Notes: generated by a model not told the origin, from the sequence alone. A DNA stretch of 64,000 nucleotides from a bacterium (GCA_020852295.1 JADZBC010000009.1:7081-71080), one strand, 5' to 3'; counted from the first letter of the stretch, positions 17,455-56,422 are shown. Numbers and translations are program-made.

Positions 17455-17488
17455 CAAATTGTTACCTTGGATTGGTCCAGGGTAACCA

Positions 17489-18328: not shown

Positions 18329-18332
18329 CTAA

Positions 18333-18424
18333 GGAGAGATGGCCGAGTGGTTGAAGGCGCTGCTCTCGAAAAGCAGTATGCGGGGTTACTCGCATCGTGG
18401 GTTCGAATCCCACTCTCTCCGCCA
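18333..18424 (+). tRNA. tRNA-Ser(CGA), type II, CCA encoded.
   Basis: Acceptor ggagaga/tctctcc, anticodon stem ctgct/agcag with loop cTCGAaa, long variable arm, T-arm gtggg-ttcgaat-cccac, G followed by CCA. Confidence 0.85.
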
Positions 18425-30400: not shown

Positions 30401-31728
30401 AAGCAGCCAAGCTGACCGCCGGATCTTTTGCCGATGTGGCAGGGGGCGTAAAAAAGACACTTACTCGCCCAGAATTCTTAGAATCAACACTCTCGCCAAA
30501 AGTGATTACTGAGGCTACCGATGTGCAGCGCACCTCAATTCCGCAGGCAGCGAGGGAGAATATTGGACTTTGGGCTCACGGCGCAGCTAATGAAGTAGAC
30601 GCAAGCGGTCAGCCCGTAATGACGGCAGCTCGTCGGGCAGCTGAACTTAGGGCAGCCGGCCACCGAACTGAAGCGGATGCTGTTGAAGCCAGGGCGAATG
30701 AGTATAAGACTGTGCTAGACCGAAATGGCAACTGGACCGCACCAGCAGCCGGCGCACCCGCCGGCTCAGGCGGATCCTCATCCACAGGGACTGGCTCGTC
30801 TGGAGGCTCCACCACAATGCCACGCGGTGCTGCTGGTGGCCACACAGGAACCGTCAACGCAAGTGGGCTCTGGGTGCCTAATAGCACAGGAGGCTCTGCA
30901 CGATCAGGGTCTGGCCCATCTACGGGACCTACACCGCCTCCTGGAGGAGCACCACCGCCACCTCCTCCACCGACTGGCGGCCCCGGACCAAGCACACCGC
31001 CACCTACGGGACCTACACCGCCTCCTGGAGGAGCACCGCCGCCTCCTCCTCCAACCGCAAGCTTTGACCCACTTGGCTCAGACCTTGACCCGGGCTATGG
31101 GGCAAATAGGGAAGCTCAGTCTCGTATCTTGGCGGATATGGCGGCAGGCAAGAGCGCGAGCGAAGCAGCTGCAACACACCTAGATTCTGGCTCATCGCCA
31201 TTTGATATCGGCGAACTCCCTGGCTCCTCATTGCCAGCAGGTGAGAGAAGTGCCTGGACTCCTCCATCTGAGCGAGCAGCCGACTGGACCCCACCGACTC
31301 CACTGCCAGCCGAAACTCCAGCACCAACTAGTCCGATTGATGATTCCGTGCGATCCACCGCATCCTCAAGCAATACAACCACAGGCACAACTGTCCAGGG
31401 CTCCTCATCCGATGAATCTAGTGCGAGCAGCGGCAAGTCAGTCCCTACATCGTCAACTTCTGGTCGAGCAACTGGCAGCCGCGTCGACGCAGGCTCAAGT
31501 GTAGCAAGCGACTTGGCGCGCTATGATGCCGAAACACGAGCTCGTCAAGCGGCCGATCGTGCGAAAGAATCCGCCCGTGAAAGCTCTAAAGAAACTCGAA
31601 AGCTCATCGAGCGCACCGAAAAAAATAGACGTGAGGACATGAGAAGACTCGGCAACAGAATTGAGGGGGGCGGCGATACAGGTACAGAGGCAGAGGCTCC
31701 GCAAAACGACACAAGTAACGAAGAATAG
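27430..31728 (+). CDS. Giant VirB6/TrbL-like T4SS inner-membrane channel protein with an N-terminal secreted Cys-rich domain and a long Ala/Pro-rich disordered C-terminal tail.
   Basis: 1432 aa. Signal peptide, about 350 aa extracellular domain with many Cys, then 6-7 TM helices with a VirB6-like pattern (...ILIQFSLLIVSLLVDIFNIFG..., ...LLARQLIIFALVLTAPLAFAAWILPG...). After that come Ala-rich RAAAL repeats and PPPGGAPPPPPP tracts ending in a basic/acidic tail. Confidence 0.6.
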   Translation: MRVRGTKYSRALSRMLGLAVFVIALTAVFGIFSAPRAEAAINKDWVQPAWRDGIGDNGTDDESRIHCGFLSSARIVCEQKIGGVSGADDTFDFWYDPINSKKYASLDVFRSDSGQNAGDGDQGWIVCSIQGGYAEDTCYALKDLTDTTAQGYTSGRPVTGWSYKGIDLAPSKDWSIDNVGEFDKDPDWKGIDTDADRDKICNIKMFSGDAPPPSTCITGFNGTRDVDISALSSFVSGYPQWRDADALKRACDNAVGILSFIICPIIGYMNNTIVAMIGKENLPSGRLNGSFPAEGQTPSEPKGLLISLLEVRPLLAKVSSGGGSFGDATPASGSAVTSGICDDASDPGGADTAYTCSIKVMWNNMKNITLTIFILIFLVIIFANVATIGIDNYTIKKMLPRLVAAAILIQFSLLIVSLLVDIFNIFGKTVSGLILSLAPATSVCSTVATGPSGTGAGKVVLGAGLGVGVTALLASPVGGPIALVGVVVIIVLVVMIAIAAIGAFIALLARQLIIFALVLTAPLAFAAWILPGTEKYFKLWRDNLIKSLAMFPIAVSMLAAAVLFSTTVIQVSACEQEFSLSTIMAALVPMVALLMLPKTFKWGGNLTSAIAGGIMGAAVARSKGVGSAASRYGKNQVKKGASGLKNAAQDRLSQTGFGQNTKTGRFLSGGGLFASYAGTTGSRQAVAARKNAAQSAADREAANLLRQANSLDADARNTNLSGRRRAAAARERDRIREKLYGSSATPAMRAAALNAAANAGDHQTLTAIHGEYSRRRNGAQEWQEALNSTGSHDAVAATMHAHAQTLAPGSAERNSINQMLTGAGATPKLRAAAVKTMAAAGDGAGLVAAHENTVRAGGQQAWLDAINANPGSMKAVADAVSTHASGMTGSIYAGAPDYNHDKAAALSVITGQQASPALRSAALGTLAKSGNEEGIEAVRQSIRAAHTDRTTGVVDEVAAGQEWARAVQANYGDFDKVPHLRPFADAERAGEAAKLTAGSFADVAGGVKKTLTRPEFLESTLSPKVITEATDVQRTSIPQAARENIGLWAHGAANEVDASGQPVMTAARRAAELRAAGHRTEADAVEARANEYKTVLDRNGNWTAPAAGAPAGSGGSSSTGTGSSGGSTTMPRGAAGGHTGTVNASGLWVPNSTGGSARSGSGPSTGPTPPPGGAPPPPPPPTGGPGPSTPPPTGPTPPPGGAPPPPPPTASFDPLGSDLDPGYGANREAQSRILADMAAGKSASEAAATHLDSGSSPFDIGELPGSSLPAGERSAWTPPSERAADWTPPTPLPAETPAPTSPIDDSVRSTASSSNTTTGTTVQGSSSDESSASSGKSVPTSSTSGRATGSRVDAGSSVASDLARYDAETRARQAADRAKESARESSKETRKLIERTEKNRREDMRRLGNRIEGGGDTGTEAEAPQNDTSNEE
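30922..31051 (+). repeat. Imperfect direct repeat inside the VirB6-like gene: two 47-nt units with an 83-nt period, encoding GPTPPPGGAPPPPPP.
   Basis: acgggacctacaccgcctcctggaggagcaccRccgccRcctcctcc occurs at 30922-30968 and at 31005-31051. Confidence 0.7.
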
Positions 31729-31733
31729 TCACT

Positions 31734-32573
31734 ATGGGACAATATAAAGTACCACAAAACGTAGAAACCGAAGATAAGATCTTGGGTCCGCTGACGATCA
31801 AGCAGTTCATCTATGTGATCATTGCTCTAGCCTGGGGATTCATCATGTGGCGAATCTTCTCGGCGGCTATACCGATCGCAGTGCTTACCATTTTGCCGGT
31901 TAGTGGAGTGTTTTTAGCGCTCGGTCTCATCCAGCGAGAAGGACAAAGTTTTGAGAACTATTTTGTGGCAATGGTTCGTTACTTTTTCGTGCCGCGCATG
32001 CTGGTTTGGACCAAGGAGCCAGAAATGGTTCAGGCCATCAAGGCGCCAAAGAAGAAGGTCGACACCGGTCCAACTTATCGCCGTAGCCCTGACGAGATAC
32101 GTGGTGCACTCAAAAAACTAGCCACCGTTATCGATACACATGGCCAGTTTCAAAAAGGGGAGACGCTCCAGCTGGCGGATGACCAAAACGAAGCAGCCGA
32201 GATCAGTAAGCGCATCGCCGGGCCACAAAACCAGTCGCTTGAGCAGCATATCAACAACATGGCACAAGCAAGTGACGATATCCTTGATCCGAACAGCGCT
32301 CGCGCCGGCTCGGTCGGCAATTTGCTTCAAAATGTCGAACAAGACGTCCGTGCTCAAGCCAGGGCAACTATGGAAAAAGACCTCCTAAAGTCTGACCGAA
32401 AAACTGCCGACCTCATACCAACGAACGTGCAAGCTACTTCTCACACCCACGCCCAAGATGCTATACTCAAAATGGCTATGCAGAGCGGCGGCATATCTGT
32501 TTCACAGCTCGCCCAGCAAGCCAATCGCCACCTAACCCTTGAGGAGGGTAAGGCGGTCAAGATAGAGCAATAG
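31734..32573 (+). CDS. T4SS VirB3/PrgI-like small membrane protein (two TM helices) with a C-terminal soluble extension.
   Basis: Sits immediately upstream of VirB4. N-terminus ...EDKILGPLTIKQFIYVIIALAWGFIMW... followed by a second TM, the topology typical of VirB3/PrgI. The assignment rests on position and topology, not on a family match. Confidence 0.4.
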   Translation: MGQYKVPQNVETEDKILGPLTIKQFIYVIIALAWGFIMWRIFSAAIPIAVLTILPVSGVFLALGLIQREGQSFENYFVAMVRYFFVPRMLVWTKEPEMVQAIKAPKKKVDTGPTYRRSPDEIRGALKKLATVIDTHGQFQKGETLQLADDQNEAAEISKRIAGPQNQSLEQHINNMAQASDDILDPNSARAGSVGNLLQNVEQDVRAQARATMEKDLLKSDRKTADLIPTNVQATSHTHAQDAILKMAMQSGGISVSQLAQQANRHLTLEEGKAVKIEQ

Positions 32574-32613: not shown

Positions 32614-33531
32614 TTGCAGCCACAGGCCAATGCAAATCAAAATCCAGCTGCACCAGTCGCAGCTAATGCTGATCCTTCGGCAACACCGCCGAAAAAAGCA
32701 AAGGACCTGCGACAAAGTACGCAGAATCACTTACTGTTATCAGAAATACGTGATGGCATAGTGGTGATGCGCGATGGTAGCCTTCGCATGGTTATCATGG
32801 CTTCTGCGCTCAATTTCGACCTCAAAAGTCCCCAAGAACAAGATGCGATCGAAAGCTCGTATCAAGGATTTCTTAACGGTCTTCATTTCCCAATCCAAAT
32901 CCTAGTACGGTCTCGTCGAATGAACCTCGACAACTATCTGGCCGAGCTGGAGAGACTCCAAGGTGAACAAGAAAACCAACTCCTCGCTGGTCTCATGGAA
33001 GACTATATCTACAACATTCGCGGCCTCATTCAGGACATCAACATCATGGATAAGGAGTTTTACATCGTCGTACCTTATTACACGCTAGCGGTCACCAAGG
33101 AAGGTTTGGCCAGCAAGGTTCGTAAGGTATTTGAGGGTAATCGCGAGGTGAGCCAAACTGCTGAGACATTTGAGGCACACAAGCGAGATCTTATACAGCG
33201 CACCAACCTCGTTGCCCAGGGACTTGCACAAATGGGTGTTCGTGCGGCAGTACTGAATACCCAGGAGCTGATTGAGCTCTTTTACTCCGTCTACAACGAA
33301 GACGAATCACAGAGCCAGTCGCTCGTCGAAGTGGATGAACTTACGACCCCTATTGTAGAGCGAGGCAACGCAGCCCCAATGCCGGCCGGCCCGCCGCCGC
33401 CAGCACCGATCGAGCCAGATGACATGTATACTGCAGCTCAGCGTGAGGGTATTGGGGCACAAGCAACGGCTGCGCCACAAGCGGCCGATCCAAATGCCTA
33501 CCAGCAGCCACCACAAGGGGGGCAGCAGTAA
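32614..33531 (+). CDS. VirB4/TrbE-family N-terminal domain encoded as a separate ORF, with Q/P-rich termini.
   Basis: RMVIMASALNFDLKSPQEQDAIESSYQGFLNGLHFPIQILVRSRRMNLDNYL matches the conserved N-terminal region of VirB4/CagE/TrbE. It ends in a TAATG overlap with the next ORF. Confidence 0.6.
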   Translation: MQPQANANQNPAAPVAANADPSATPPKKAKDLRQSTQNHLLLSEIRDGIVVMRDGSLRMVIMASALNFDLKSPQEQDAIESSYQGFLNGLHFPIQILVRSRRMNLDNYLAELERLQGEQENQLLAGLMEDYIYNIRGLIQDINIMDKEFYIVVPYYTLAVTKEGLASKVRKVFEGNREVSQTAETFEAHKRDLIQRTNLVAQGLAQMGVRAAVLNTQELIELFYSVYNEDESQSQSLVEVDELTTPIVERGNAAPMPAGPPPPAPIEPDDMYTAAQREGIGAQATAAPQAADPNAYQQPPQGGQQ

Positions 33532-35426
33532 TGGGTCTCTTTGGCAACAAGCAACCTCAACAGCCCCAAGTCGATCCGCAGGCAGCCGCTCAAGCTGCGC
33601 AAAATGCGCAGGCAGAGGCCGTCTATCGACAAGGTGTGGTGACGCTTCGTGACACCATCGCTCCGTCATCCTTCGAGATAGAAAGTAACTTCATTAAGAT
33701 CGGCAAGCGCTATGCACGAACGCTGTTTGTCTATGGATACCCTCGTACGCTCTTTACTGGCTGGCTCAGCCCGCTCATCAACCTAGACGAGGTTATCGAC
33801 ATCAGTATGTTTATCGAGCCAGTCGAAAGCCGAGTGGTACTCGAAAACCTTCGCAAAAAAGTAGGGCAACTTGAAGCTAGCATCACTATCAACCAAGAAA
33901 AGGGCATGGTGCGTGATCCGGGCCTGGAAGCGGCAGTCCAAGATGCCGAGGAACTCCGTGACGCCCTACAGGTTGGAGAAGAACGCTTCTTCCGCTTTGG
34001 ACTGTACTTCACAATCTACGGCAAAGACCTCGAGGAGCTCGACCTCGTTCAGCGCAAAGTCGAGAGTATGCTTGGTAGTAGCCTGATCTATACCAAACCA
34101 GCCACTATTCAGATGGAGCAAGGCTTCAACTCCTCGGTACCAATTGCGACCGACCTACTTGGCATCAGCCGCAATATGAACACAGGCTCACTCTCAACAA
34201 GCTTTCCTTTTACGACTGCGGAGCTTAGTCAGGATAAGGGAATTATGTATGGCGTTAATCGGCACAATAACAGCCTGGTTATCTTTGACCGGTTTAGCTT
34301 AGAAAACGCCAATATGGCCGTCTTTGCTAAATCTGGTGGTGGTAAGAGTTTTGCGGTCAAGCTTGAATGCCTGCGCTCGCTCATGATGGGTACCGAAATC
34401 ATCATTATCGACCCAGAAAACGAATATAAGACCCTGTGTGACGCAGTCGGGGGTGGCTTTTTACGCCTCTCGCTGGCCAGTGACACCCGCATCAATCCAT
34501 TTGACCTGCCTCAGACAGTAGACCCAGAAGAAGCCGACAATGCGCTTCGAGCCAATATTATTATGCTCACTGGACTCATCCGACTGATGTGTGGCGACCT
34601 TTCGCAAACCGAGCTGGCCGACCTCGATGTGGCGCTCATCAATACTTACGCCGAAAAGGGGATTACCAATGACCCTCTCACGCATACTGCCGTGCCGCCA
34701 ACCATGACCGACCTGTACAACACCCTCATCAGCATGGGCGGGACCGGCCCATCAATTGCTGCTCGTTTGCGCCGCTACGTTGAAGGTACCTTCTCTGGAA
34801 TCTTCTCACAGCAGTCCAATGTCGACCTGAACTCAAAGTTCGTCGTGTTCAATATTCGTGACCTGGAAGACGAAATGCGACCGATCGGCATGTACATCAC
34901 ACTTAACTATATCTGGAATCGCGTGAAGAGCGAGAAGAAAAAGCGCATTCTCGTGGTGGATGAAGCCTGGCAACTTATGCAATATCAAGAATCGGCTCAG
35001 TTTATGTTCTCGATCGCCAAGCGTGCCCGTAAGTATTACCTTGGACTTACTACGATCTCGCAGGACGTCGAGGATTTCTTAAGTACCCGCCTTGGACGTG
35101 CAGTCGTCAGCAACTCATCACTCCAGCTCCTGCTTAAGCAATCACCATCGGCTGTCGATATTGTAGCTGATACCTTCAAATTAACTTCCGAGGAGCGCAA
35201 CCGCCTCACACAGTTCCCAGTCGGTGAAGGGCTATTCTTTGCTGGACTGTCGCACGTGATTCTGCGTATTCTTGCTTCTCCTACAGAAGAACAACTCATC
35301 ACCACCAACCCACAACAATTGCTCGACCGCGAAGCTGCCACACAGGCACAAACCCTGACTGACGAACTAACCGCTGGGCCCGTTGAGCTGGCGCAGCAGA
35401 CAGATGCTGGAGTAGCAAATGGCTAG
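33531..35426 (+). CDS. VirB4/TrbE-family T4SS ATPase, C-terminal ATPase portion.
   Basis: Walker A AVFAKSGGGKSF, Walker B ILVVDEAWQLM, and VirB4-type motifs (IIIDPENEY, RKYYLGLTTISQDVEDF). Confidence 0.85.
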   Translation: MGLFGNKQPQQPQVDPQAAAQAAQNAQAEAVYRQGVVTLRDTIAPSSFEIESNFIKIGKRYARTLFVYGYPRTLFTGWLSPLINLDEVIDISMFIEPVESRVVLENLRKKVGQLEASITINQEKGMVRDPGLEAAVQDAEELRDALQVGEERFFRFGLYFTIYGKDLEELDLVQRKVESMLGSSLIYTKPATIQMEQGFNSSVPIATDLLGISRNMNTGSLSTSFPFTTAELSQDKGIMYGVNRHNNSLVIFDRFSLENANMAVFAKSGGGKSFAVKLECLRSLMMGTEIIIIDPENEYKTLCDAVGGGFLRLSLASDTRINPFDLPQTVDPEEADNALRANIIMLTGLIRLMCGDLSQTELADLDVALINTYAEKGITNDPLTHTAVPPTMTDLYNTLISMGGTGPSIAARLRRYVEGTFSGIFSQQSNVDLNSKFVVFNIRDLEDEMRPIGMYITLNYIWNRVKSEKKKRILVVDEAWQLMQYQESAQFMFSIAKRARKYYLGLTTISQDVEDFLSTRLGRAVVSNSSLQLLLKQSPSAVDIVADTFKLTSEERNRLTQFPVGEGLFFAGLSHVILRILASPTEEQLITTNPQQLLDREAATQAQTLTDELTAGPVELAQQTDAGVANG

Positions 35427-38400
35427 CCCTACGATGCCCAAGCCAACTGGCGGAAATAGGCCCAAACCAAACCCGCGACCCCAAGGTCAAACTGGTGGAA
35501 GCCAAAGTAGCGGATTTCGGCCAATGCAGAGTGAGCGTATGGGCCCGACAAAAAATGCCGCCAGGCAAGCCGGTGCACCGGTAGTAGACAAGGATCTAAA
35601 GGAGGGACTCCATGCCGAAACAAGGGCTGAGCGAGCTCAAGCTCGACAGGACCTTACAAAACGCGTTGAGCATGCTCGAGGTGGTGCTGCGGGTAAAGTA
35701 GCAGCAGCTAGGCAGGGTGGCACAAAAGAGGCTGCCGTTGAAGCTGGCAGGCAGGCGGCCGTAAAGGGATTTGAGAAGGGCGCCCAGTACGCGGCCGACG
35801 CCGCAACTGGTGGCGCAGCCGAAGCTGTAAGGCCAGTAATCAAGGCGGCCGCTAAGGCACTGGAATGGCTTTCGCGCAACAAGCGCTGGCTCAAGATCGG
35901 TGCGGTCCTGATATCGCCACTCATTTTCGTATTTCTATTAATCATATGGATTATTAGCGACCCTTTTGGATCAATTTCAAAAATTGGCTACACCGCGTTT
36001 AATGCCTTCAAAACTGCAGCTGGAGCAGCAATATCTGGTGCAGGATTTAGTGCCGAACTGACCATCAATGACCTCAATGAACAAATGAAGTCAGTGGCAG
36101 CAACCAATAGTGCAGGAATTATGCCGGAAGAGGGTACGATAGCATACAAACTCCTACAGATAGACGCAGAAAAAATTCAGACTAGCTCATACAATCCTGG
36201 AATACCCTTTAAGATTGAAACCAAAAAAATCAATGGTCCTGACGGAAGGTCGTATACCGTCATGGATAAGGTCGTAAATACAAACAGCGGATCGTCGATT
36301 AGCATTAAAGACGCCGCTAGCCCGACAGGCCCAATCGGCCAGAAAAACATTGTGGCCGCAGTATTGTCTCAGAAAATCCCAATCATGCAGTTTATGATCC
36401 GCCAGCCAGCGACGAGAAAATTAAACAAAGCACCAGACCTTGGGCTTGCGCTAAACTATGGCGAGAACAAAGATAATCAAAATGCAAATCTTAATCGGCC
36501 ATACGAAGAGCTTCAAAAGTTCCTAAAGGAAAAAACGTATAAACGCGTGCGTGGCTCCAGCATTACTCTGCCGACAGTAGGTGTTGTAGGTTCAGATGAG
36601 TCAAAATTAGTCACTCAAAAAATCGTCGATTCGATTAAAAAGGTTCAAGATGACATCGTAAAGGATTACGAGCCTTCGAAACTACAAATAGAGCTGCCAT
36701 ATGATCAATTTGGTCAAGAGCGCTTATCGCCAAAGCGAATAAGCAATACATTGTGTGCGTTCCAGGAAATTCTGCTGGATCCAAAGAATATTGCTAGTGC
36801 AGTAGAGAGTCGAGCAAATGCTGCTAGGCGTGATGGTGCAAAATTTATGACACTGAAAGACACTCATAATAAGGCAGCACTAGACACTAATGAGCTGAAG
36901 TTTAGTATTCAACAGATGGCTGACTACACAAAAAGTATGTCCTACCAGAGAATTGTATATGGCCGACTTTCGGGCGAGGCAGTTGATCCTGATGGGATTG
37001 GTCAGGCTGCTATGTCTATCACGCGAGAAAAGTATGACGCTAGCGCACAAACAATACTCCAAAATATGTCTGACACCTGCGGAACATTGCGCTACCTCGA
37101 CCAGCGAAGGGCCGATGAGGCTGCGGACGCGAGTGTCTGGTCGGATGAAAGTCCTAACAACTTTATCCGTACATACTATCGGGAAATCCGCACCGCAAAT
37201 GTTACTGTGCAGGATATACAGAGCTATTATGTTGAATATAGAGACAGTCCAACCTGCGATCCCCTGCGACCAAATAGTGACAGTAGTGATAAGGTTCGTT
37301 GTGCTGTTTATTCCTTTAGAATCGCAATCCTACGAAACTACTTCAACAAATTTCAGCAAGAGATATATCGTGGAAGCCAAAAATACTACACTAGCCCCGA
37401 GAAGGTAACACCCGAAGACATTACTACTCGACTTATTAAGATTGGCGCTGGGGTATCTACTACCGGCCTCGAGGATGGCAATCAAAATTTTTCACGAGCT
37501 ATACAGGGATTAAACCAGTTAAACTACGACTACAGTATGGTATACGGTGGTAGATTTTTGACAGATGCAGAAAATGACCAGAATGCAAAAGAGCTTGCCG
37601 AATTACGTGACTGGCAAACCAAAAACTACGGCATAGCATACCGGGTCTTTAATACCGATAATGTCAGTTCTATAGCTAGCCGGTTGATGCAGCACACCCC
37701 ACCTGAACCAAAACGCGCAATAGCCTGGATGTTCGGAAGTATATTGAAAGCGATAATTAACCCCATACGTACTTTTGCCACGATAGATGGTGCTGCCAAC
37801 TATGTGCTCAAAGGGGAACAAAATATTGCGATGGCCGCAGACCAAGCGGTTTACAATGATGCCCGATACAATAAAGCCAGTCCTGTCGGCTTCACTAAGC
37901 AGGAAACCTCAATCGACTGGAAAAACAATGCAAAGTTTATTGAGGCACTGAAGAAAAATAAAACGCAAGTAGTTGATCCTGACCCACTCGTAAATGGCGC
38001 AAAGGTTGACGCCAATACACTCTTTAGTAAATGGGACAACTGTTTCACCTCGAAGATTACATCGGAAATATATTTTGACGACAATTACCTAGCGGCGCTA
38101 AATTTTGGTGCCAATCTTCCCGAGATTCCTCAGCAAGAGAGAGATGAGTTTAAGCGTAAGTATGAACTCTTTAGTGGCTGTAAACCACTGCTGAGTAGTG
38201 CATCAAATAATATTAACTCGCTCCAAGTACAGTATCGCGTTTACCGTTTTCGATCTCTAGTATTGGACAGCCTAGTAACCCTGAGTAACGACGAGGAAGA
38301 TAAAAATCTCGACGCAAATGGCGACCAGGGTGCGACGCCCTCAACAAGCGCCGGGCCAGGGGGTCCAAGTGGTGTTAATGGACTTCAGAGCCCACCAAAC

Positions 38401-38904
38401 CTAGGAGCAGCAGATAGTCAGGGCTATTATCGTTTACCTCCATCCGCTGATGGCTCATACAGAACATATAGTACGCCTGGTGAGCAATGTGGTAGCCTTG
38501 CACTCATCCAAACACTCTATACAGTCTCGCAGGCCTGGAAGGCAAGATTTGGAGGCAATCTCTACATCGGAGACCTCAACGCCTCCGGCCACAAAAGTCA
38601 CCGCAACGGCGTAGATGTTGACCTTATTGCAATAGCGGGTGACGGCAGCCGGGCAGCCGACTACTCTCGCGGTGGTTATTCTAGAGATAAGACGATCGAA
38701 CTAGGAAAGATGTTCGTAGATACTGGTATCGTCACGGATATCGGATACCAAGATGGGCAGGCAGGGTCGGCTATTGATGCTTACTATAGGGAGAAGGGAC
38801 AGGGTAGTAGTGTGGTAAGGCCTTGGTCAGGGCACGATGACCACTTCCATGTGCGAATAAAGGATGAATTTAGAGGACCAAGGAGTGAGCGCTGTGCAAA
38901 CTAA
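35419..38904 (+). CDS. Giant membrane-anchored protein with a C-terminal LAS-type zinc peptidase domain similar to penicillin-insensitive murein endopeptidase MepA.
   Basis: 1161 aa. Basic disordered N-terminus, one TM (KIGAVLISPLIFVFLLIIWIISDPF), a long extracellular region, and a C-terminal NASGHKSHRNGVDVDL ... SGHDDHFHVRI (H..D ... HxH metal ligands as in MepA HQTGLDVDI / DDHFHVR). ATG overlaps the VirB4 stop (ATGGCTAG). Confidence 0.7.
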   Translation: MASPTMPKPTGGNRPKPNPRPQGQTGGSQSSGFRPMQSERMGPTKNAARQAGAPVVDKDLKEGLHAETRAERAQARQDLTKRVEHARGGAAGKVAAARQGGTKEAAVEAGRQAAVKGFEKGAQYAADAATGGAAEAVRPVIKAAAKALEWLSRNKRWLKIGAVLISPLIFVFLLIIWIISDPFGSISKIGYTAFNAFKTAAGAAISGAGFSAELTINDLNEQMKSVAATNSAGIMPEEGTIAYKLLQIDAEKIQTSSYNPGIPFKIETKKINGPDGRSYTVMDKVVNTNSGSSISIKDAASPTGPIGQKNIVAAVLSQKIPIMQFMIRQPATRKLNKAPDLGLALNYGENKDNQNANLNRPYEELQKFLKEKTYKRVRGSSITLPTVGVVGSDESKLVTQKIVDSIKKVQDDIVKDYEPSKLQIELPYDQFGQERLSPKRISNTLCAFQEILLDPKNIASAVESRANAARRDGAKFMTLKDTHNKAALDTNELKFSIQQMADYTKSMSYQRIVYGRLSGEAVDPDGIGQAAMSITREKYDASAQTILQNMSDTCGTLRYLDQRRADEAADASVWSDESPNNFIRTYYREIRTANVTVQDIQSYYVEYRDSPTCDPLRPNSDSSDKVRCAVYSFRIAILRNYFNKFQQEIYRGSQKYYTSPEKVTPEDITTRLIKIGAGVSTTGLEDGNQNFSRAIQGLNQLNYDYSMVYGGRFLTDAENDQNAKELAELRDWQTKNYGIAYRVFNTDNVSSIASRLMQHTPPEPKRAIAWMFGSILKAIINPIRTFATIDGAANYVLKGEQNIAMAADQAVYNDARYNKASPVGFTKQETSIDWKNNAKFIEALKKNKTQVVDPDPLVNGAKVDANTLFSKWDNCFTSKITSEIYFDDNYLAALNFGANLPEIPQQERDEFKRKYELFSGCKPLLSSASNNINSLQVQYRVYRFRSLVLDSLVTLSNDEEDKNLDANGDQGATPSTSAGPGGPSGVNGLQSPPNLGAADSQGYYRLPPSADGSYRTYSTPGEQCGSLALIQTLYTVSQAWKARFGGNLYIGDLNASGHKSHRNGVDVDLIAIAGDGSRAADYSRGGYSRDKTIELGKMFVDTGIVTDIGYQDGQAGSAIDAYYREKGQGSSVVRPWSGHDDHFHVRIKDEFRGPRSERCAN

Positions 38905-40906
38905 AAGTAAACTATTTTCTACCGCCAGTATTGCTGTTTTCATAATTTCTTTACTCCTGCAGCCCCTAAACACACTCGCCGCAAGTCCAGAACAGCGCAT
39001 TAATATCGAGCGTCGGCCCTGGTTTGACCCTACAGACATCGCCTGCACAAATACAACCGCTCCAGGCACAAACCAGTCTACAGTACAGCCGGGTCCAATA
39101 TATATCGTCGGCGACTCAGTGATGGATGGTGCAAAATCTAAGGTCGAGCCAACTATTACAGCAGCGGGTTGGCAGCCTAAATTCAACACTCTTGTATCGA
39201 GAAAGCTTAGCGGAACACCACCAAATCCTGATGGTTTTGGCGCTATTGCGCTTGATGGTGATTTTATAAAAACTGCAAAAGCTGTTGTGATCGAGCTTGG
39301 CACTAACCCTTCATCGGAATTCAGTAAAAAAGTACCTGAGTTTGTACAAGCAATAAAACAGCTAAATTCAGCCGTAACTATCTACTGGATTGATACGGCG
39401 AGCCCCGGTAGATCGGATTTTCAAAACCACATCAAAAACGCCAATACCGCTATCTATAACAACTCGACATCTTCGGGTTATAAAGTAATATCTTGGTTTA
39501 AGAAAGTGTTTGGAGATTCTTCTGATCCTCTCAACCCATCATCCACCGCACCAGACACCGGTAAGCTTATTTCGACAGCCGATGGGCTCAACGTTCACCC
39601 TACTGACGCAGGGAAGCAAGCAATGGCTGATATTGTGTTGCAGAATATCGGAGGACAAACTCCGGCACAAGCCGCCATTGCAATGAACACTCGAACCAAG
39701 GCGATTATCGACAGTCAGCTAAAAATACTAGCTGCTGACACCGGTCAGGCCAACACAGCACCAATTGCAGTCCCAGAACCATACGCCTCAATTTTCCCAA
39801 AGGCCGCTGCTCGACACGGCACAGACCCGATATTTCTCGCTACAATTTTTCTCGCTGAGCACGGCGGAGGATTCCCTAATCCGCCACCGCCATACGGTAC
39901 AGGTGGCCGCTGGGCAACGTCAAACAAGGGTGCTAATGGTCCATTTCAGTTTCTCGTGAGTACTTGGGCGGGTAAAAAACAAGATGCCGACAGAATGACT
40001 GTCAAGAAATTCAACTCGAACGAAACAATCGAGGTTGGTGGAGATGGTACAACAGACATTCAGGATCTAGCCGACGCCGCCTTTGGTGCAGCGCAATACC
40101 TTGCCGAGGCAGGTGGAAAAGTGGGGACCCCACTTGGTGATACCGTTAACCCTATGGCCGAGAACACACTTACCTCCGCTATGGTTGCATACAATGCAGG
40201 TGGTGGAAATCTTAACAAATGGAGGAGATGCGGAACCTCGCTGTCCTGTATCGGTGCAGCCGAGACTAGGAAATATGTAACAAATGGAGTGAACTACTAC
40301 CAGCGTCTTGGTGGACAGCTAAACGTTGATCCGGGTGCCACCACTACAAATCAAACCTGTAGCGATGGCTCGAGCACAACTCCTGGCGGCGGGCTCGGTG
40401 TATCTGCTGATGGCTTTGTATTTCCATTGAAAACCACTAAAGCAGTTATCCGGCAAGGAGCAGATGGCGCCGTATGGTGTATACAGGCCCAGAATAATTG
40501 CCACCATGATTACAATGCGGCGGACATTCATGCGCCAACCGGAACGATTGTAGTTGCTGCGAGAGGTGGGACTGTCTTAAGTACGAGAACTGAGGTTAAT
40601 TATGAAAACGGCAATACGCTCCGCATACAGGGTGATGATGGACTTTGGTATTATTACGCACATATGGGGGATGGGACACTGAAGGTGAAAAAGGGCGATA
40701 AGGTGACTGCAGGCCAAGAACTAGGAGCAGTAGGAACTTCAGCAGATGCTCAGGGAACGGCACCACACCTACACTTCGATATTGCAGACCACGAAAATGG
40801 CTTCTCCCGAGGACGTGGCGGTGCATGCGGATTCGAGTGCCAAAACTACCTCATCAATCCACAGCCTGTATTAATTGCAGCATTTGCTAAGTTACCGGAG
40901 AACTAG
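38894..40906 (+). CDS. Secreted tri-domain peptidoglycan hydrolase: SGNH/GDSL esterase, lytic transglycosylase (SLT) and M23 (LytM) endopeptidase.
   Basis: Signal peptide; IYIVGDSVMDG (GDS motif block I); SLT motifs AEHGGG...GANGPFQF...AYNAGGGN; M23 motifs HHDYNAADIHAPTGT...HLHFD. Start set to GTG 38894, which lies 8 nt after AGGAG. The track ATG at 38864 lies inside the upstream gene. Confidence 0.75.
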   Translation: MQTKSKLFSTASIAVFIISLLLQPLNTLAASPEQRINIERRPWFDPTDIACTNTTAPGTNQSTVQPGPIYIVGDSVMDGAKSKVEPTITAAGWQPKFNTLVSRKLSGTPPNPDGFGAIALDGDFIKTAKAVVIELGTNPSSEFSKKVPEFVQAIKQLNSAVTIYWIDTASPGRSDFQNHIKNANTAIYNNSTSSGYKVISWFKKVFGDSSDPLNPSSTAPDTGKLISTADGLNVHPTDAGKQAMADIVLQNIGGQTPAQAAIAMNTRTKAIIDSQLKILAADTGQANTAPIAVPEPYASIFPKAAARHGTDPIFLATIFLAEHGGGFPNPPPPYGTGGRWATSNKGANGPFQFLVSTWAGKKQDADRMTVKKFNSNETIEVGGDGTTDIQDLADAAFGAAQYLAEAGGKVGTPLGDTVNPMAENTLTSAMVAYNAGGGNLNKWRRCGTSLSCIGAAETRKYVTNGVNYYQRLGGQLNVDPGATTTNQTCSDGSSTTPGGGLGVSADGFVFPLKTTKAVIRQGADGAVWCIQAQNNCHHDYNAADIHAPTGTIVVAARGGTVLSTRTEVNYENGNTLRIQGDDGLWYYYAHMGDGTLKVKKGDKVTAGQELGAVGTSADAQGTAPHLHFDIADHENGFSRGRGGACGFECQNYLINPQPVLIAAFAKLPEN

Positions 40907-40907: not shown

Positions 40908-42188
40908 ATGAACCAACAACAAGAACGCAGGAAGCTAATCATTTATACCGTCCTTACAGTCGCTGCGATCCTCGCGATTTACTGGATTATCCAATTTCTT
41001 ACAACTGGTGAACTTAAAGTCACAACAAGCAATAAATCAGCGGAAATAAACATCATTGACCCCGCCACCGGCAAAGTAAGTCAATTTGTGGGCAAAGGCA
41101 GCGGGAGTATCCGCCTCAAGCCTGGTACCTATACAGTTGAGGCAAAACTAGATGACCGGATAACGCGAACTGGATTCGAAATAGTGACATCTAAGACAAC
41201 AAGTAAGAATTTACAGATTACAGACATTAAGTCTCCTAATCAGTTTTTGTACTACTCAGCAAGTCATCTTCATGCTAAAGATAACATACTCTATTTTAGA
41301 AACGATTCTACCAGGGAGTTTAATAAATTCAACTCTTCTGAATCAGAGCCAACCGTAGTCGAGGAGAGTTTACCAGAGATAAGCACAATCCACTGGGCTA
41401 CTGGGGGCAACCTCGCGCTGCTTGAGACATCAGATAATATTTTTTATTACTTCGAGGATGGAAAAATCCGAGTAGTAGATATAAGTGCACCTAATGGCTT
41501 GCTCTATCCGGACAGCAGCAAACCAGACGAAGCCGAAGAAAGTGACGTTAATAGCCAGATTCTACATGCACAGGTGAATGAACTTGGGGCATTTGCCTTC
41601 ATTGAAGAAGGAAAAGTTTTTTACAAACCAAGCCTGGCGGAGAAGGCTAAGCTTGTTACGAATAGGCAGCTACTGAGCGATTCTATACTCGAACTTTCTA
41701 ACAAAGGGTTAATAGCTTTAGTAACATACGAATCACTGGGGCAGGAAAATATCACTTCTAAGGACATCTCAAAGCGAGCAATAGAAATATACAATTCTAA
41801 GAACAACGAAAAAACAACCTTGTCGACAAAGGAAATTCCTGGATTTATGAGTTGGTCACCTGGCGGCGATAAGTTGGTCTATTCAGACGGACAAAACATC
41901 ATGCTTTACAACGATAACGATAAGTCAACCAAAATTGCCTTAGGTAATCGTGGGGAGCTCTCTACATTCATAAGTTGGATCAACGATGATACTATGATTT
42001 TTCCAGACAAAACTAGCCTATGGAAGTACGAGGTTGCTAGCAACACAACAACTAAGATAGCAAATATCCCTGCCGGTATGCTTGTTCAATCTCTCGGTGT
42101 CGATAGCAACGAAAAAACAGTTTTTCTTAGCACTAAGCCAAACTCTCGGTTCGACGCCTTCGGCAATGTCTACCGACTCGATCTCTAG
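40908..42188 (+). CDS. Membrane-anchored beta-propeller-like protein (TolB/WD40-like repeats). It is AT-rich.
   Basis: N-terminal TM (LIIYTVLTVAAILAIYWIIQF) and repeated motifs IHWATGGNLALLETSDN, WSPGGDKLVYSDGQNIMLYN, TFISWINDDTMIF typical of propeller blades. ATG 40908 chosen 1 nt after the upstream stop. Confidence 0.5.
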   Translation: MNQQQERRKLIIYTVLTVAAILAIYWIIQFLTTGELKVTTSNKSAEINIIDPATGKVSQFVGKGSGSIRLKPGTYTVEAKLDDRITRTGFEIVTSKTTSKNLQITDIKSPNQFLYYSASHLHAKDNILYFRNDSTREFNKFNSSESEPTVVEESLPEISTIHWATGGNLALLETSDNIFYYFEDGKIRVVDISAPNGLLYPDSSKPDEAEESDVNSQILHAQVNELGAFAFIEEGKVFYKPSLAEKAKLVTNRQLLSDSILELSNKGLIALVTYESLGQENITSKDISKRAIEIYNSKNNEKTTLSTKEIPGFMSWSPGGDKLVYSDGQNIMLYNDNDKSTKIALGNRGELSTFISWINDDTMIFPDKTSLWKYEVASNTTTKIANIPAGMLVQSLGVDSNEKTVFLSTKPNSRFDAFGNVYRLDL

Positions 42189-42457
42189 CGCACACTCACG
42201 GCGATAAAGCGTACACCTTCGACACCGCGTTTTGTAATCTCTTTAAGGATATCCTGCGCGGCATGCCGCAGTTCACTCGCAGCCGCGGCGTCCTCGGTCG
42301 CAATCTTAATGACCCCATTCTTGTAGCTAACTACTCGTACCTCAATGCGAAGCATATCAACAATCGCAAGTTTTACCTCGGTCATGACGTCAAGCTTCTG
42401 CATGCCAAGACTATCGGCACGCCGACTCAGTATGTCCTTGATGTCATCCATGGCCAA
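42185..42457 (-). CDS. DUF721-like small protein, as in the conserved recF-associated position.
   Basis: 90 aa, located immediately downstream of recF with a 14-nt overlap, matching the common dnaA-dnaN-recF-DUF721 arrangement. Confidence 0.55.
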   Translation of the reverse strand: MAMDDIKDILSRRADSLGMQKLDVMTEVKLAIVDMLRIEVRVVSYKNGVIKIATEDAAAASELRHAAQDILKEITKRGVEGVRFIAVSVR

Positions 42458-43517
42458 CCCCGCTCAAATCGATCACCTGAATATCCATATTGCTCATCCC
42501 ATCAAGCTCGGTTGCAGTGATGAATGTTTGTTGTTGCCCAACGATAGCTATGAGATGCTGTCGGCGGCGCTCATCGAGCTCGCTAAATACATCATCCAGA
42601 AGAAGGGTAGGGCGCTGTAAAGTCTTCGCCTGCATATATTCAATCTCAGAGAGCTTCATTGCCAAAATAAGCGTTCTCATTTCGCCGCGTGACACGATTT
42701 CGACAACCGGCCGATTGTCGCGCAGAATACTAAAATCATCACGATGTGGTCCCAAAGTACTAAAACCGGCCGCCACGTCGCGTACATGGGCCCTGCGCAG
42801 CTCTGAGAGGTATTCATTGTCCATGCTTACACTCGGCCGATACTCCAAAACAAACTCATGGGTAAGGTTTGCGATGCGACCATACTCGCCATTGAGCTGG
42901 TCGGCCATAGTCTTAAGGAAGTCAGCTCGAGTAACCATAAGGTGTTGTGCTGGTTCAGCCAGCTGCACATCAAAAACAAAAAGCTGATCTGACAGACTCG
43001 CATCGTCTGCTCGACCATATTTTTTAGCTTGATGGAGGAGACTGTTGCGCTGCTTAAGTATGCGCCGATAGAGCGATAACTGCTTCATATAGGCGCGATC
43101 GACTTGCGATAATATCGTATCCAAATAGCGTCGGCGCTGACTTGGCCCATCATAGAGAAGCGACAGATCCCTGGGCTCAAAAAGAACTACCGGATGACGG
43201 CCAACTAAGTATGAAAGAGGTTTTTTAACATCACCCAGTAGAGCTGTCTTGTGGTGACTGTCGCCAGTAACAACATACCGAACCTCTGTCATTTCATCTT
43301 CATGCTGACAGCGAACCTTATAAAAATCAGCCTCAAAATTTACGAGTTCGGGATCGTGCGCTCGAAATGACTTTGTCGTAGCGCTTACATAGATCGATTC
43401 GAGTAGGTTAGTCTTGCCGACGGCATTTGGGCCAATAATCGCGACGATAGAGGATGTAAAATCAATACCAAAATCTTTGTAGGATCGAAAGTTGGTTAGC
43501 GCCAGATGCTTGATCAT
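42444..43517 (-). CDS. recF: DNA replication and repair protein RecF.
   Basis: Walker A GPNAVGKTNLLESI, SMC-like signature and Walker B LLLDDVFSELD. Confidence 0.9.
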   Translation of the reverse strand: MIKHLALTNFRSYKDFGIDFTSSIVAIIGPNAVGKTNLLESIYVSATTKSFRAHDPELVNFEADFYKVRCQHEDEMTEVRYVVTGDSHHKTALLGDVKKPLSYLVGRHPVVLFEPRDLSLLYDGPSQRRRYLDTILSQVDRAYMKQLSLYRRILKQRNSLLHQAKKYGRADDASLSDQLFVFDVQLAEPAQHLMVTRADFLKTMADQLNGEYGRIANLTHEFVLEYRPSVSMDNEYLSELRRAHVRDVAAGFSTLGPHRDDFSILRDNRPVVEIVSRGEMRTLILAMKLSEIEYMQAKTLQRPTLLLDDVFSELDERRRQHLIAIVGQQQTFITATELDGMSNMDIQVIDLSGVGHG

Positions 43518-43523
43518 ACATGC

Positions 43524-44630
43524 CTAGCTACGTAGTGGCATAATAATGTGTCGATACGAGGTATCCTGTTCACCTTTGACAGGCGTGACAAGACAGGGGT
43601 TGAGCTTGCCTGAAATACCAAGTTTAACGGTCGGGGTTTTGACGACTGTCAATACATCAAGTAGGTATTTAGCATTGAGCGAGATTTCACCAGGATCACC
43701 AACGAGCTTGGTCTCGAGTGAAGATTGGTTTTCGCCAACCTGGGCGGCACTACTCGAAATTGACAGCTTGCCAGCCTCAAACGTCAGCTTGATCGTATTG
43801 GCAGTTTCTCGAGCAAAAAGACCTGCTACCTTAATCGTTGAGAGTAGTTCGGCCGTATCAACTACCGCTTCCGTCTCATTCTTATCAGGAATTATTTTTT
43901 TGTAATCAGGGAATTTACCCTCAATCAATCGAGAAACAAGCCGAATGTCGCCCATATTAAACTCTATCTCTGTCTCGGTTGCGCCAACTTCAACATCACC
44001 CTCGTACTGAGAGAGGATTCGAATGAGTTCGTTGACCGTCTTCGCCGGCACGATAAAATCAGCATCCGCCTTTTGCTCTTGCGTAAGGGCAACAACTGAT
44101 TCAGCGAGTCGATAGCTATCGGTCGCAGCTAATAGCAACTCTTTTCCGCGAACAGAGAAGACCACACCAGAAAGAACCGGTCGAGACTCATCAACAGCCG
44201 CCGCAAACCCCACCTGACTGAGCGCGGTGACGAGTGTTGCCGCTGGAAATGAAAGCGATGTGGTTGGCTTGATGACCGGCACATTCGGAAACTCTTCACT
44301 CGCAATCCCATTAATGGTTGACTCGAAGTTAGTCGTCTTGATGTGGAGGTTTTGTGCCGCCGCGTTGAGCAGTAGCTTGTCGCTGGGGAGGGAATTGATG
44401 AGCTCGGTCAGAAGGCGAGCAGGCACACTGAGGCTGCCATCAGTTTCAACCTTGGCACCTACCTGATAAACGATAGCTATTTCTAGATTTGTACCAATTA
44501 CTTCGAGTCGTCCCAAGTTTGCCTTGAGTAATACGTTAGAGAGTACGGCTAGGCTCGATCGATTACCTACTACACGACTCACCACGTTTAAGGCTTTACT
44601 TAAATTTTCTTGAATTACTGATACTTTCAT
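43524..44630 (-). CDS. dnaN: DNA polymerase III beta sliding clamp.
   Basis: 368 aa with a three-domain clamp pattern (MKVSVIQENLSKALNVVSRVV... ; ...LNPCLV...), positioned between dnaA and recF. Confidence 0.9.
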   Translation of the reverse strand: MKVSVIQENLSKALNVVSRVVGNRSSLAVLSNVLLKANLGRLEVIGTNLEIAIVYQVGAKVETDGSLSVPARLLTELINSLPSDKLLLNAAAQNLHIKTTNFESTINGIASEEFPNVPVIKPTTSLSFPAATLVTALSQVGFAAAVDESRPVLSGVVFSVRGKELLLAATDSYRLAESVVALTQEQKADADFIVPAKTVNELIRILSQYEGDVEVGATETEIEFNMGDIRLVSRLIEGKFPDYKKIIPDKNETEAVVDTAELLSTIKVAGLFARETANTIKLTFEAGKLSISSSAAQVGENQSSLETKLVGDPGEISLNAKYLLDVLTVVKTPTVKLGISGKLNPCLVTPVKGEQDTSYRHIIMPLRS

Positions 44631-44928
44631 ATTTATCCCCTCAAGCTATTGCTTATTATAAGTTAATTAATAAATAGTAGTGATAGTAATAGTGTCTGTG
44701 GATAGCTTGGAAAAGTCGAAAAAACACTATGTTTATCGTTTGTTTTTGTTTTCTACACTGTGTACAAGCACTGCATACGAATATGTGTGTAAATGTATAA
44801 CTTGTGCATGTTTTGTGTTTTCATAATCTAGTGAGTCTGTCAATTGTGTTTATCTAGTGGAAAAACACACGGTTTTAAACAACTATTACACAACTTATCC
44901 ACCACTTAACCACAGGGCCTGTGTATAA
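44631..44928. promoter_or_regulatory. AT-rich dnaA-dnaN intergenic region with DnaA-box-like 9-mers, a candidate oriC half.
   Basis: TGTGGATAG at 44697-44705 and TTATCCACC at 44895-44903, plus AT-rich tracts. Confidence 0.45.
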
Positions 44929-46314
44929 CTATCCATTGAGGATTTTTTGTTTCAGGGTTTTTATTTCATGACTAACTGAATCATTCTTTGTGAGTTCGGC
45001 ATTGATTTTGCGTACCCCGTGCATGATGGTCGTATGGTCCCGACCACCAAGAGAACTAGCGATACGTGGAAAACTAATGCCAAGCTCTTCACGCATGATA
45101 TACATCGCTACCTGACGGGGCACCACAATCTCCTTGTCGCGGCGGGGGCCGATGAGATCGGCAGTCGTTAGATCGTAAAAAGCGGCAGTCTTTTCGATAA
45201 CTATCTTTGGACTCAAGGTGGTCCGCGATGGTCGCGCTGTCGCCCCGCCGCCGATCACCTGGTCGACTATTTCGGTTGTGATTGGGGTGGCATTAGCTTG
45301 GCAATGGGCGATCAGTCGAGTGAGGGCACCCTCAAGTTCTCGAATATTGGTCTGTAGTAGCTCAGCCAAGTGACTCGCTACATTGTCTGGGAGGTCGAAC
45401 TGACGACTGCTAGCCTTACTCTGTAAGATCGCGACCCGTGTCTCGAAGTCTGGCAGCTGAATATCGGCGACCATACCCCACTCAAAGCGGCTCCTTAAGC
45501 GGTCCTCAAGGGTGGCGATAGCTTTTGGTGGTCGGTCGGAACAGAGCACAATCTGCTTGTTGGCCTGGTGGAGTGCATTGAAAGTATGAAAAAACTCTTC
45601 CTGGGTTTTCTCTTTGCCGGCAATAAACTGCAGATCATCAACCAGTAGGACATCAACCGTTCTATACGTATCGGCAAACTTTTCACCTTTTCGAATGGCG
45701 TTAATGAAATTATTCGTAAAGTCCTCACTCGTAACATATAAGATCTTAAAGTCCGGGTGACTACGAGCGATCTCAAAGCTGATCGCCCACATCAGGTGAG
45801 TCTTACCGACACCAGCTGGCCCATACAGAAAGAGGGGGTTGTACGATTCACCGGGGTTTTCAGTAACCTGGCGAGCTGCCGTAAAAGCGAGCCGATTGCC
45901 GGACCCAACGATAAAGTTGGTGAAGTTGTACTTTGCTTCGAGATTCTTCGGCAGGCTGATTTGCGACTGACGATTATTGGCGGACTGCTTTGTTTTCTGT
46001 GGGGTAGTTGGCTTTTCGGTTGGCCGATCGAGCCGAATATCTTCTTCCGCGGCCGTGCTCGCGGTCTTTATCTGGTAGGTAATTGATTCAATCGAGGGCT
46101 CTTGCTTCTGTAGGGCCGACAATATTTCACCATTATAGTTATGCTCAAGTCGATCTCGTGCAAAGATATTAGGAGCTGCAACGACAGCCTGAGTGTCGCC
46201 GAGCTCGAGCAGGTGAGTGTTCTTCACCCATGTTTTAAAGTTTGCACCGCTCATAGAGACCTCTAGCTCACCAAGAACGGCTCGCCAGATCCTATCGAGA
46301 TCCTTTTGTGACAT
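44929..46314 (-). CDS. dnaA: Chromosomal replication initiator DnaA.
   Basis: AAA+ Walker A GPAGVGKTHL, Walker B LLVDDLQF, and C-terminal DnaA-box-binding HTH (...RQVAMYIMREELGISFPRIASSLGGRDHTTIMHG...). Confidence 0.95.
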   Translation of the reverse strand: MSQKDLDRIWRAVLGELEVSMSGANFKTWVKNTHLLELGDTQAVVAAPNIFARDRLEHNYNGEILSALQKQEPSIESITYQIKTASTAAEEDIRLDRPTEKPTTPQKTKQSANNRQSQISLPKNLEAKYNFTNFIVGSGNRLAFTAARQVTENPGESYNPLFLYGPAGVGKTHLMWAISFEIARSHPDFKILYVTSEDFTNNFINAIRKGEKFADTYRTVDVLLVDDLQFIAGKEKTQEEFFHTFNALHQANKQIVLCSDRPPKAIATLEDRLRSRFEWGMVADIQLPDFETRVAILQSKASSRQFDLPDNVASHLAELLQTNIRELEGALTRLIAHCQANATPITTEIVDQVIGGGATARPSRTTLSPKIVIEKTAAFYDLTTADLIGPRRDKEIVVPRQVAMYIMREELGISFPRIASSLGGRDHTTIMHGVRKINAELTKNDSVSHEIKTLKQKILNG

Positions 46315-56399: not shown

Positions 56400-56422
56400 C
56401 AGATATAGTATAATTACTACAT

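Follow-up and report, generated by a model that had tools for sequence, protein, structure and literature searches.

Among the closest known counterparts of the gene treated here are the wall hydrolases of the PrgK (pCF10), TraG (pIP501), CwlT (ICEBs1) and VirB1 class, which are encoded in operons for monoderm-type type IV secretion systems (T4SSs) and unite two domains, one glycan-cleaving and one peptidase; PrgK, for example, carries LytM and SLT. We know of no SGNH domain reported in PrgK, TraG or CwlT. We analyzed a stretch of bacterial DNA of 64,000 nucleotides (GCA_020852295.1 JADZBC010000009.1:7081-71080, referred to below as the window), in which a gene at 38894..40906 encodes a single 670-residue polypeptide with SGNH, lytic transglycosylase and M23 domains. 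Most probably (about 0.6), the protein is a peptidoglycan-lytic accessory enzyme of the chromosomal T4SS of a Saccharibacterium, a tiny parasitic bacterium from a monoderm (single-membrane) lineage of the Patescibacteria, or candidate phyla radiation (CPR), and would cut the wall in three steps.

Multi-domain wall hydrolases of monoderm T4SSs are already known, and the gene that occupies this slot in Saccharibacteria has been noted in the literature. In a survey of Patescibacteria T4SSs, the combination of SLT and CHAP was the general pattern of such hydrolases, classical VirB1 was rarely linked to VirB4, and peptidase or lysozyme genes downstream of virB4 were proposed as stand-ins. Southlakia epibionticum ML1 has the same layout as the window, with dnaA, dnaN and recF at SEML1_0001-0003, the hydrolase at 0006, a LAS protein at 0007, VirB4 at 0008 and PrgI at 0010 (PMC10633639). 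SEML1_0006 of this organism (Candidatus Southlakia epibionticum ML1; 643 aa) lies in the same slot, two genes after VirB4 near recF-dnaN-dnaA, and is a multi-domain wall hydrolase; both SEML1_0006 and SEML1_0007 were scored essential by transposon sequencing (Wang et al. 2023, PMC10633639 Tables S1/S2). However, SEML1_0006 has no SGNH, MltB-like lytic transglycosylase or M23 domain, and the essentiality data thus come from a relative with other modules.

Several traits of the T4SS hydrolase class are present in the window: the position in a VirB4 operon, a signal peptide, and a glycan-cleaving domain together with a peptidase domain. In contrast to PrgK, TraG and CwlT, in which the peptidase is CHAP or NlpC/P60, the peptidase domain here is M23, and whereas those proteins serve DNA conjugation, the T4SS of Saccharibacteria has no recognisable relaxase or coupling protein. 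No account of an SGNH module in T4SS wall hydrolases came to light in our literature search, in which SGNH and Saccharibacteria were named together in an unrelated fatty-acid context and, left aside here, in a metagenomic esterase survey. Nor did we find a description of lytic enzymes that carry a fused OatA/PatB-type domain. The gene and the features of its product are the following.

38880..38885, plus strand: AAGGAG ribosome-binding site, 8 nucleotides before the GTG (read from the sequence)
38894..40906, plus strand: gene for the secreted SGNH, lytic transglycosylase and M23 protein, 670 aa, GTG start and TAG stop (open reading frame list and sequence)
38894..38980, plus strand: Sec signal peptide, residues 1-29, predicted cleavage between NTLA and AS (sequence features)
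39089..39658, plus strand: SGNH domain, about residues 66-255 (profile, Pfam and structure comparison)
39116-39118, 39200-39202, 39305-39307, 39581-39583 and 39596-39598, plus strand: SGNH key residues Ser75, Arg103, Asn138, Asp230 and His235
39761..40309, plus strand: family-3 (MltB/SLT_2-like) lytic transglycosylase domain, about residues 290-472 (profile and Pfam)
39857-39859, 39929-39952 and 40187-40204, plus strand: lytic transglycosylase motifs Glu322, GANGPFQF and AYNAGG
40406..40903, plus strand: M23 (LytM-type) domain, about residues 505-670 (Pfam and structure search)
40499-40507, 40511-40513, 40523-40525, 40661-40663 and 40766-40774, plus strand: M23 residues Cys536-His537-His538, Tyr540, Asp544, His590, and His625 with His627

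The product translated from the GTG is identical over its 670 residues to the NCBI protein P0001, whose sole annotation is 'peptidoglycan DD-metalloendopeptidase family protein [bacterium]'. The GTG overlaps the stop codon of the upstream gene (38902-38904) by 11 nucleotides. A preliminary description of this DNA had proposed the GTG start on account of its ribosome-binding site, and the proposal holds; the ATG at 38864 was considered as a start and rejected, as the GTG has the better ribosome-binding site, and its product begins with a canonical signal peptide and agrees with the NCBI protein. The N-terminus read from the GTG is a classical Sec signal peptide (MQTKSKLF...LNTLA, followed by AS), its Ala29 is conserved in at least 90% of 73 relatives, and a hydrophobic N-terminal segment is present in 142 of the 163 relatives collected. 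The view of one secreted polypeptide that unites SGNH, lytic transglycosylase and M23 domains was borne out, with export by Sec. Among the motifs quoted for it, G73-D74-S75, E322, GANGPFQF (346-353), AYNAGG (432-437) and H625-L-H627 were found as described, in contrast to the HxxxD of M23. The AlphaFold2 (AF2) model of the whole protein was of moderate quality (mean pLDDT 63.6, pTM 0.35), with domain cores usable for fold search.

The gene lies in a Gram-positive-type T4SS operon, a context absent from the preliminary description. It is the second gene after that for VirB4, and from orf305 through the gene following the hydrolase the start and stop codons overlap or abut, and we therefore regard these genes as one operon. 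The T4SS cluster and its flank contain the following genes.

25014-25397, 25400-25816, 26193-26678 and 26950-27339, minus strand: four T4SS pilin (VirB2-like) genes (Pfam T4SS_pilin, 1e-12 to 2e-9)
27430..31728, plus strand: 1432-aa protein in the VirB6/PrgH position (weak NCBIfam conjugal transfer match; conserved upstream of PrgI)
31734..32573, plus strand: PrgI (VirB3-like; Pfam PrgI, 7.3e-14)
32614..33531, plus strand: orf305, 305 aa, conserved T4SS-cluster gene and counterpart of SEML1_0009 (copies 42-63% identical in the same position at 11 loci)
33531..35426, plus strand: VirB4-type T4SS ATPase of the CD1110 family (NCBIfam NF045971, 4.1e-111, above the cut-off; Pfam TraG P-loop)
35419..38904, plus strand: 1161-aa membrane-anchored LAS/M74 protein, counterpart of SEML1_0007 (Pfam Peptidase_M74, 1.1e-8; NCBIfam; synteny)
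40908..42188, plus strand: downstream gene, about 426 aa from the ATG at 40908, membrane-anchored, with weak beta-propeller-like matches (conserved after the hydrolase slot)
42444..46314, minus strand: recF, dnaN and dnaA, the origin region flanking the T4SS cluster (Pfam DnaA domains; tblastn synteny)

The 1161-aa LAS protein ends in a metallopeptidase with the motifs SHRNGVDVD...HDDHFH. It also has a disordered basic N-terminus, one membrane helix and a large middle region conserved in the loci L001 and L006-L008. The four tandem pilin genes are divergent in sequence and match the multi-pilin clusters of S. epibionticum, an arrangement unusual for a monoderm T4SS. A phage or mobile-element origin of the locus was considered and rejected, since it is chromosomal, adjoins dnaA, dnaN and recF, and is syntenic across genomes.

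The SGNH domain was characterized with a profile built from 11 excised domains and run against solved structures. The best match was the C-terminal domain of Staphylococcus aureus OatA (OatA-C, E 7.8e-12), followed by Campylobacter jejuni PatB 8GR2 and 8TLB (E 1.4e-7 and 1.9e-7), assorted Bacteroides GDSL proteins (E about 1e-7 to 1e-5) and Neisseria gonorrhoeae PatB (E 2.5e-4); Ape1 was matched only at E 0.084. OatA-C and PatB are the closest solved relatives of the domain in both sequence and structure. Once excised, it also passes the Pfam cut-offs for DUF459 (29.6, cut-off 27.2) and Lipase_GDSL (24.2, cut-off 23.6), and ten of eleven SGNH domains of relatives match GDSL_2. Block I, G73-D74-S75, is invariant in the 11 domains and at least 90% conserved in 73-146 relatives, while block III (L135-G136-T137-N138) and His235 of block V are invariant or nearly so among relatives. 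Block II reads Ser102-Arg103, with a nearly invariant Arg103, and is Gly-Arg in some relatives and in S. aureus OatA. The module thus has the Ser/His/Asn set and the Gly/Ser-Arg block II in common with OatA-C (S. aureus 6VJP/6WN9) and PatB (C. jejuni 8GR2/8TLB; N. gonorrhoeae 7TJB).

These features indicate that the domain belongs to the peptidoglycan-acting branch of the fold, on the acetyltransferase side and not with Ape. The fold is compact, about 190 residues long, and we found no Pfam CBM match in it that would correspond to the CBM35-type insertion characteristic of Ape1. Ape1 of Neisseria and Campylobacter has the same task as the one proposed here, namely to take the 6-O-acetyl group off N-acetylmuramic acid (MurNAc) so that lytic transglycosylases can act. 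The domain had been described as an Ape-type esterase; relatedness to Ape1 did not stand up, while the domain fusions do fit O-acetyl removal ahead of glycan cutting. Clustering with lipases, named earlier as a finding that would refute the proposal, was not seen, and the domain groups with peptidoglycan-acting SGNH domains. Accordingly, a lipase or phospholipase effector was rejected as a candidate, the top matches being peptidoglycan-acting SGNH domains and the fusion partners all wall hydrolases.

An exhaustive search placed the SGNH subfamily at 459 representative clusters, 192 of them at E <=1e-10; its members are mostly 600-1000 aa long, with the domain directly behind the signal peptide. 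We scanned 73 representatives (every second of 146) for Pfam partners and found Phage_lysozyme2 in 52, M23 in 11, CHAP in 8, Peptidase_C39_2 in 7, Amidase_3 and SLT_2 in 6 each, GH3 in 5, Glucosaminidase and VanY in 4 each, and Amidase_2 and Beta-lactamase2 in 3 each. Nearly every member sampled is fused to a wall hydrolase that cleaves glycan. O-acetylation of MurNAc at C6 blocks lytic transglycosylases and lysozymes (PMC9487903, PMC7083599), and in Neisseria Ape1 cooperates with the lytic transglycosylase LtgA (PMC7083599); a fusion of SGNH to a glycan cutter makes sense for this reason. For OatA and PatB, the acetyl group has to come from a membrane donor (an AT3 domain or the MBOAT protein PatA), whereas the SGNH module here is fused to lytic enzymes. 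Since the domain is secreted, comes without an acetyl donor and is joined to lytic enzymes, an esterase is the simplest reading, and we infer that the module is an esterase rather than a transferase, with O-acetyl-MurNAc as its substrate. It probably strips acetyl groups so that the other modules can cut an acetyl-protected wall.

The alternative that SGNH is a true O-acetyltransferase like OatA-C and PatB, which would acetylate MurNAc around the channel or at glycan ends in a 'cut and protect' scheme, draws on the top sequence and structure matches and on the block II Gly/Ser-Arg in common with OatA. We nevertheless regard it as very improbable. No Acyl_transf_3 or MBOAT domain was found by Pfam in the 73 subfamily members, so that an AT3 or MBOAT donor is fused in none of them, and a polytopic membrane region, taken as at least three hydrophobic segments, is absent from all 163 proteins collected. 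The scanned open reading frames of the window likewise yielded no AT3/MBOAT acetyl-donor domain, which leaves a secreted domain with no evident source of acetyl groups, and all fusion partners are degradative. Moreover, an Asp located four residues after the catalytic Ser of S. aureus OatA orders a water molecule and restrains hydrolysis, without being universal among OatA proteins (PMC9487903); this residue is not conserved here, being Gly in the query and variable in relatives. It is also unlikely, if somewhat less so, that the module de-acylates a surface polysaccharide, teichoic acid, arabinogalactan ester, lipid or similar target in place of peptidoglycan, and clears a path in the manner of phage tail-spike deacetylases: OatA-C and PatB are clearly the top profile matches, and the domain is fused to hydrolases of peptidoglycan rather than to polysaccharide lyases or lipases.

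For the lytic transglycosylase domain, a profile of 15 SLT segments was run against solved structures and matched MltB/Slt35, SltB1 and SltB3 (7qvd, 9vlr, 5anz, 4anr, 1d0k) with E values from 4e-8 to 4e-6. The match spans the S-x-x-G-A-x-G-P-x-Q-F motif and the DGxGDG EF-hand-like loop. The catalytic Glu, which the preliminary description had singled out for checking, was confirmed: Glu322 shows no variation across 7 full-length and 15 domain sequences and aligns with the catalytic '...vES' Glu of MltB-type chains, in a segment that scores weakly. Catalytic Glu, GAxGxxQF and the DGxGDG loop are common to the Saccharibacteria domain and to MltB/Slt35 and SltB1/SltB3, but only the former has a PPPPYG insertion after the Glu. 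The SLT_2 cut-off is passed by the orthologues L001, L003, L005, L008 and P0010. In the query, a 17-residue insertion (the RMTVKKFNSNETIEVGG region, residues 364-380, about 39983-40033) splits the EF-hand-like loop; the loop is intact in all close homologues.

The M23 domain was recognized by Pfam Peptidase_M23 (E 1.4e-19, 70.5 bits against a cut-off of 28.7). In the fold search with the predicted model, its structural matches included LytM and lysostaphin as well as the LytM domains of EnvC, DipM and SpoIIQ.

Several points weigh against a three-step wall cutter with an esterase at its front. The nearest characterized kin of the SGNH domain are acetyltransferases and not esterases, and to our knowledge the subfamily has no characterized esterase. 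O-acetylated peptidoglycan in the Saccharibacterium or its host is an assumption. On the full-length protein, DUF459 and Lipase_GDSL stay below the Pfam threshold, as do SLT (19.1, cut-off 21.3) and SLT_2 (14.1, cut-off 24.3). Block V of the query is D230-G-L-N-V-H235, that is D-x4-H and not DxxH; among 11 relatives the DxxH spacing occurs in three and the Asp is missing in two. Of the catalytic Ser, His and Asp which the earlier reading had asked for in SGNH, Ser75 and His235 are invariant, as is Asn138, and the Asp stands in a non-canonical spacing in the query. In the M23 domain, the expected HxxxD is replaced by C536-H-H-D-Y540-N-A-A-D544, and the AF2 pLDDT falls below 50 at residues 530-539, exactly the loop of the missing zinc ligand.

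The preliminary description had counted HxxxD among the M23 motifs; it is absent in its canonical form, with Tyr540 at the position of the zinc-binding His, and the peptidase activity stays putative. HMMER aligns Tyr540 with the zinc-binding His of the solved M23 enzymes 9gy1 and 9k2v, and the T4SS-linked M23 subfamily has Tyr (once Ala) at this site, whereas the distant relatives P0009 and P0018 keep HxxxD. The domain could thus be a catalytically dead LytM domain that binds peptidoglycan or regulates a partner, for example the neighboring LAS peptidase, as EnvC and NlpD do and as the LytM domain of PrgK is reported to do. The Tyr throughout the subfamily and the EnvC, DipM and SpoIIQ domains among the structural matches speak for this possibility. 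On the other hand, Asp544, His590 and His625-x-His627 are retained, His590 and His627 being invariant, and a Cys-His pair (Cys536-His537) 6-8 residues before the Asp is conserved across the subfamily. M23A enzymes offer a precedent: their zinc-binding His and Asp are spaced 14 residues apart (His22 and Asp36 in beta-lytic protease; PMC8715609), which makes a relocated zinc ligand, His537 or His538, plausible. Taken together, we consider a dead domain to be a real but minority possibility, and an active M23 as somewhat more probable than a degenerate one.

The mature hydrolase contains eight cysteines, at residues 51, 446, 452, 489, 529, 536, 645 and 649. Their arrangement suggests that C446/C452, C529/C536 (beside the proposed zinc His) and C645/C649 form disulfides in an extracytoplasmic protein.

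Relatives of the hydrolase in GTDB genomes are almost all from Saccharibacteria. By tblastn, the gene order VirB6-like, PrgI, orf305, VirB4, large LAS protein, hydrolase, orf437, recF-dnaN-dnaA was found in full in L001, L003-L008, L012 and L014 and partially in L002, L010 and L018, and the synteny of the T4SS with recF-dnaN-dnaA is kept in at least ten Saccharibacteria genomes. The slot after VirB4 and the LAS protein is fixed in position, yet it is filled by at least 11 module combinations (L001-L014, L018), which draw on SGNH, SLT, Phage_lysozyme2, Glucosaminidase, M23, VanY, Amidase_2 and CHAP. The architectures, given in order, are listed below.

Window and L001: SGNH, SLT, M23
L003 and L012: SGNH, unassigned segment, SLT_2, M23
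L004: unknown, SLT, M23
L006: SLT, SGNH, Glucosaminidase, Amidase_2
L007: SLT, SGNH, Glucosaminidase, VanY
L002: Phage_lysozyme2, SGNH, SLT
L018: SGNH, Phage_lysozyme2
L005: Phage_lysozyme2, SLT_2
L008: SLT_2, Amidase_2
L010: SLT_2, CHAP
S. epibionticum ML1: Glucosaminidase, Phage_lysozyme2, Cys protease

We read this shuffling of modules at a fixed slot as a possible adaptation to different wall chemistries. The same SGNH subfamily also occurs in a metagenomic, myovirus-like contig (L017) with sheath, tape-measure and baseplate-wedge genes of a contractile-tailed phage.

L017 10001-12943: P0017, 980 aa, encoded after the tape-measure gene in the tail-lysin position (same SGNH subfamily plus a degenerate M23-like module)

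Among IMG/VR viral contigs, a pattern scan with the SGNH profile yielded no relatives. P0017 and the internal protein of the cyanophage A4 pre-ejectosome (9K2V) are, like the hydrolase, large multi-module wall-penetration proteins with M23; they are parts of virions, however, whereas the hydrolase is the product of a secretion-system operon.

Under the preferred reading of a T4SS accessory enzyme, the protein would be translated within the VirB4 operon via the overlapping start and stop codons, exported by Sec and freed of its signal peptide. The SGNH domain (Ser75, His235 and the oxyanion Asn138) would then remove the 6-O-acetyl group from MurNAc, which otherwise blocks the formation of 1,6-anhydroMurNAc; the MltB-like lytic transglycosylase (Glu322) would cut the glycan strand, and M23 (Asp544, His590, His625 and His627, with His537 or His538 as the substitute first zinc ligand) the peptide cross-links. 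The neighboring LAS peptidase might contribute a second peptide-bond specificity, and the outcome would be an opening of the peptidoglycan for the T4SS channel or pilus. By analogy with its positional equivalent SEML1_0006, which was scored essential, the hydrolase may be needed for T4SS function.

The domain set had been taken earlier as a sign of breaching a foreign wall rather than of housekeeping. The data do not settle this contrast, and the wall that is cut may be the bacterium's own, the host's, or both. In the host-directed version, the enzyme would be released at the contact site and attack the peptidoglycan of the host (typically Actinobacteria in the case of cultivated Saccharibacteria), with SGNH overcoming O-acetyl protection; the enzymology would be the same as in the preferred reading, and the module shuffling would track the wall chemistry of hosts and hence host range. 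Consistent with this are the cleavable signal peptide without a membrane anchor, the heavy lytic load of three modules plus the adjacent LAS peptidase, the extensive module swapping at a fixed locus, the occurrence of this SGNH subfamily where a phage has its tail lysin, which acts from outside, and the essentiality of the T4SS and the slot gene for the epibiotic growth of S. epibionticum (PMC10633639). Against this, the location of the protein, its substrate and its host are all assumed in such a scheme. The likewise multi-domain PrgK, TraG and CwlT of Gram-positive conjugation act on the donor's own wall, which also counts against a host-directed role, and we hold that role to be conceivable but not the leading possibility.

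More tentatively still, we suggest that in the T4SS hydrolases of Saccharibacteria an OatA/PatB-type acetyltransferase fold may have become a secreted esterase for O-acetylpeptidoglycan, whose target is the lysozyme-resistant, O-acetylated host wall, and that the slot modules may help to set which hosts can be opened. If so, a monoderm lineage would own Ape activity, for which we know of no Gram-positive counterpart. An SGNH esterase would represent a new class of O-acetylpeptidoglycan esterases, arisen from the acetyltransferase branch of the fold, and might serve as a tool against Gram-positive walls that are O-acetylated and resist lysozyme. Few machines have been shown to be indispensable to Saccharibacteria as epibionts, and the T4SS is among them; the hydrolase, together with its large SGNH family, offers a testable enzymology (de-acetylate, cut glycan, cut peptide) for a T4SS that passes two cell walls. 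Hosts are very difficult to predict in this phylum, and the shuffling of slot modules is a candidate for what determines host range.

Further features were recorded elsewhere in the window. A 90-aa open reading frame at 42185-42457 (minus strand) separates recF from the end of the T4SS operon, immediately downstream of recF, in a position that we take to be usually held by a DUF721-type gene. Rfam detected five tRNAs at 14527-18421 (plus strand), interspersed with small open reading frames, and none near the hydrolase gene. At 49883-51685 (minus strand), close to the origin region, a wall-associated 600-aa VanW-like protein with PG_binding_4 domains is encoded, and at 53472-55286 (plus strand) a 604-aa protein with an Ig-like N_BRCA1_IG and a D-mannose-binding B_lectin domain, which may be a surface adhesin. 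The same-strand genes at 55335-62891 (plus strand) include an epimerase, an ABC-2 type permease and an ATPase of the polysaccharide/teichoic-acid exporter type; from about 58 kb, covering the later open reading frames of this run, the GC content goes down to 0.41-0.44. The region is probably a surface glycopolymer locus.

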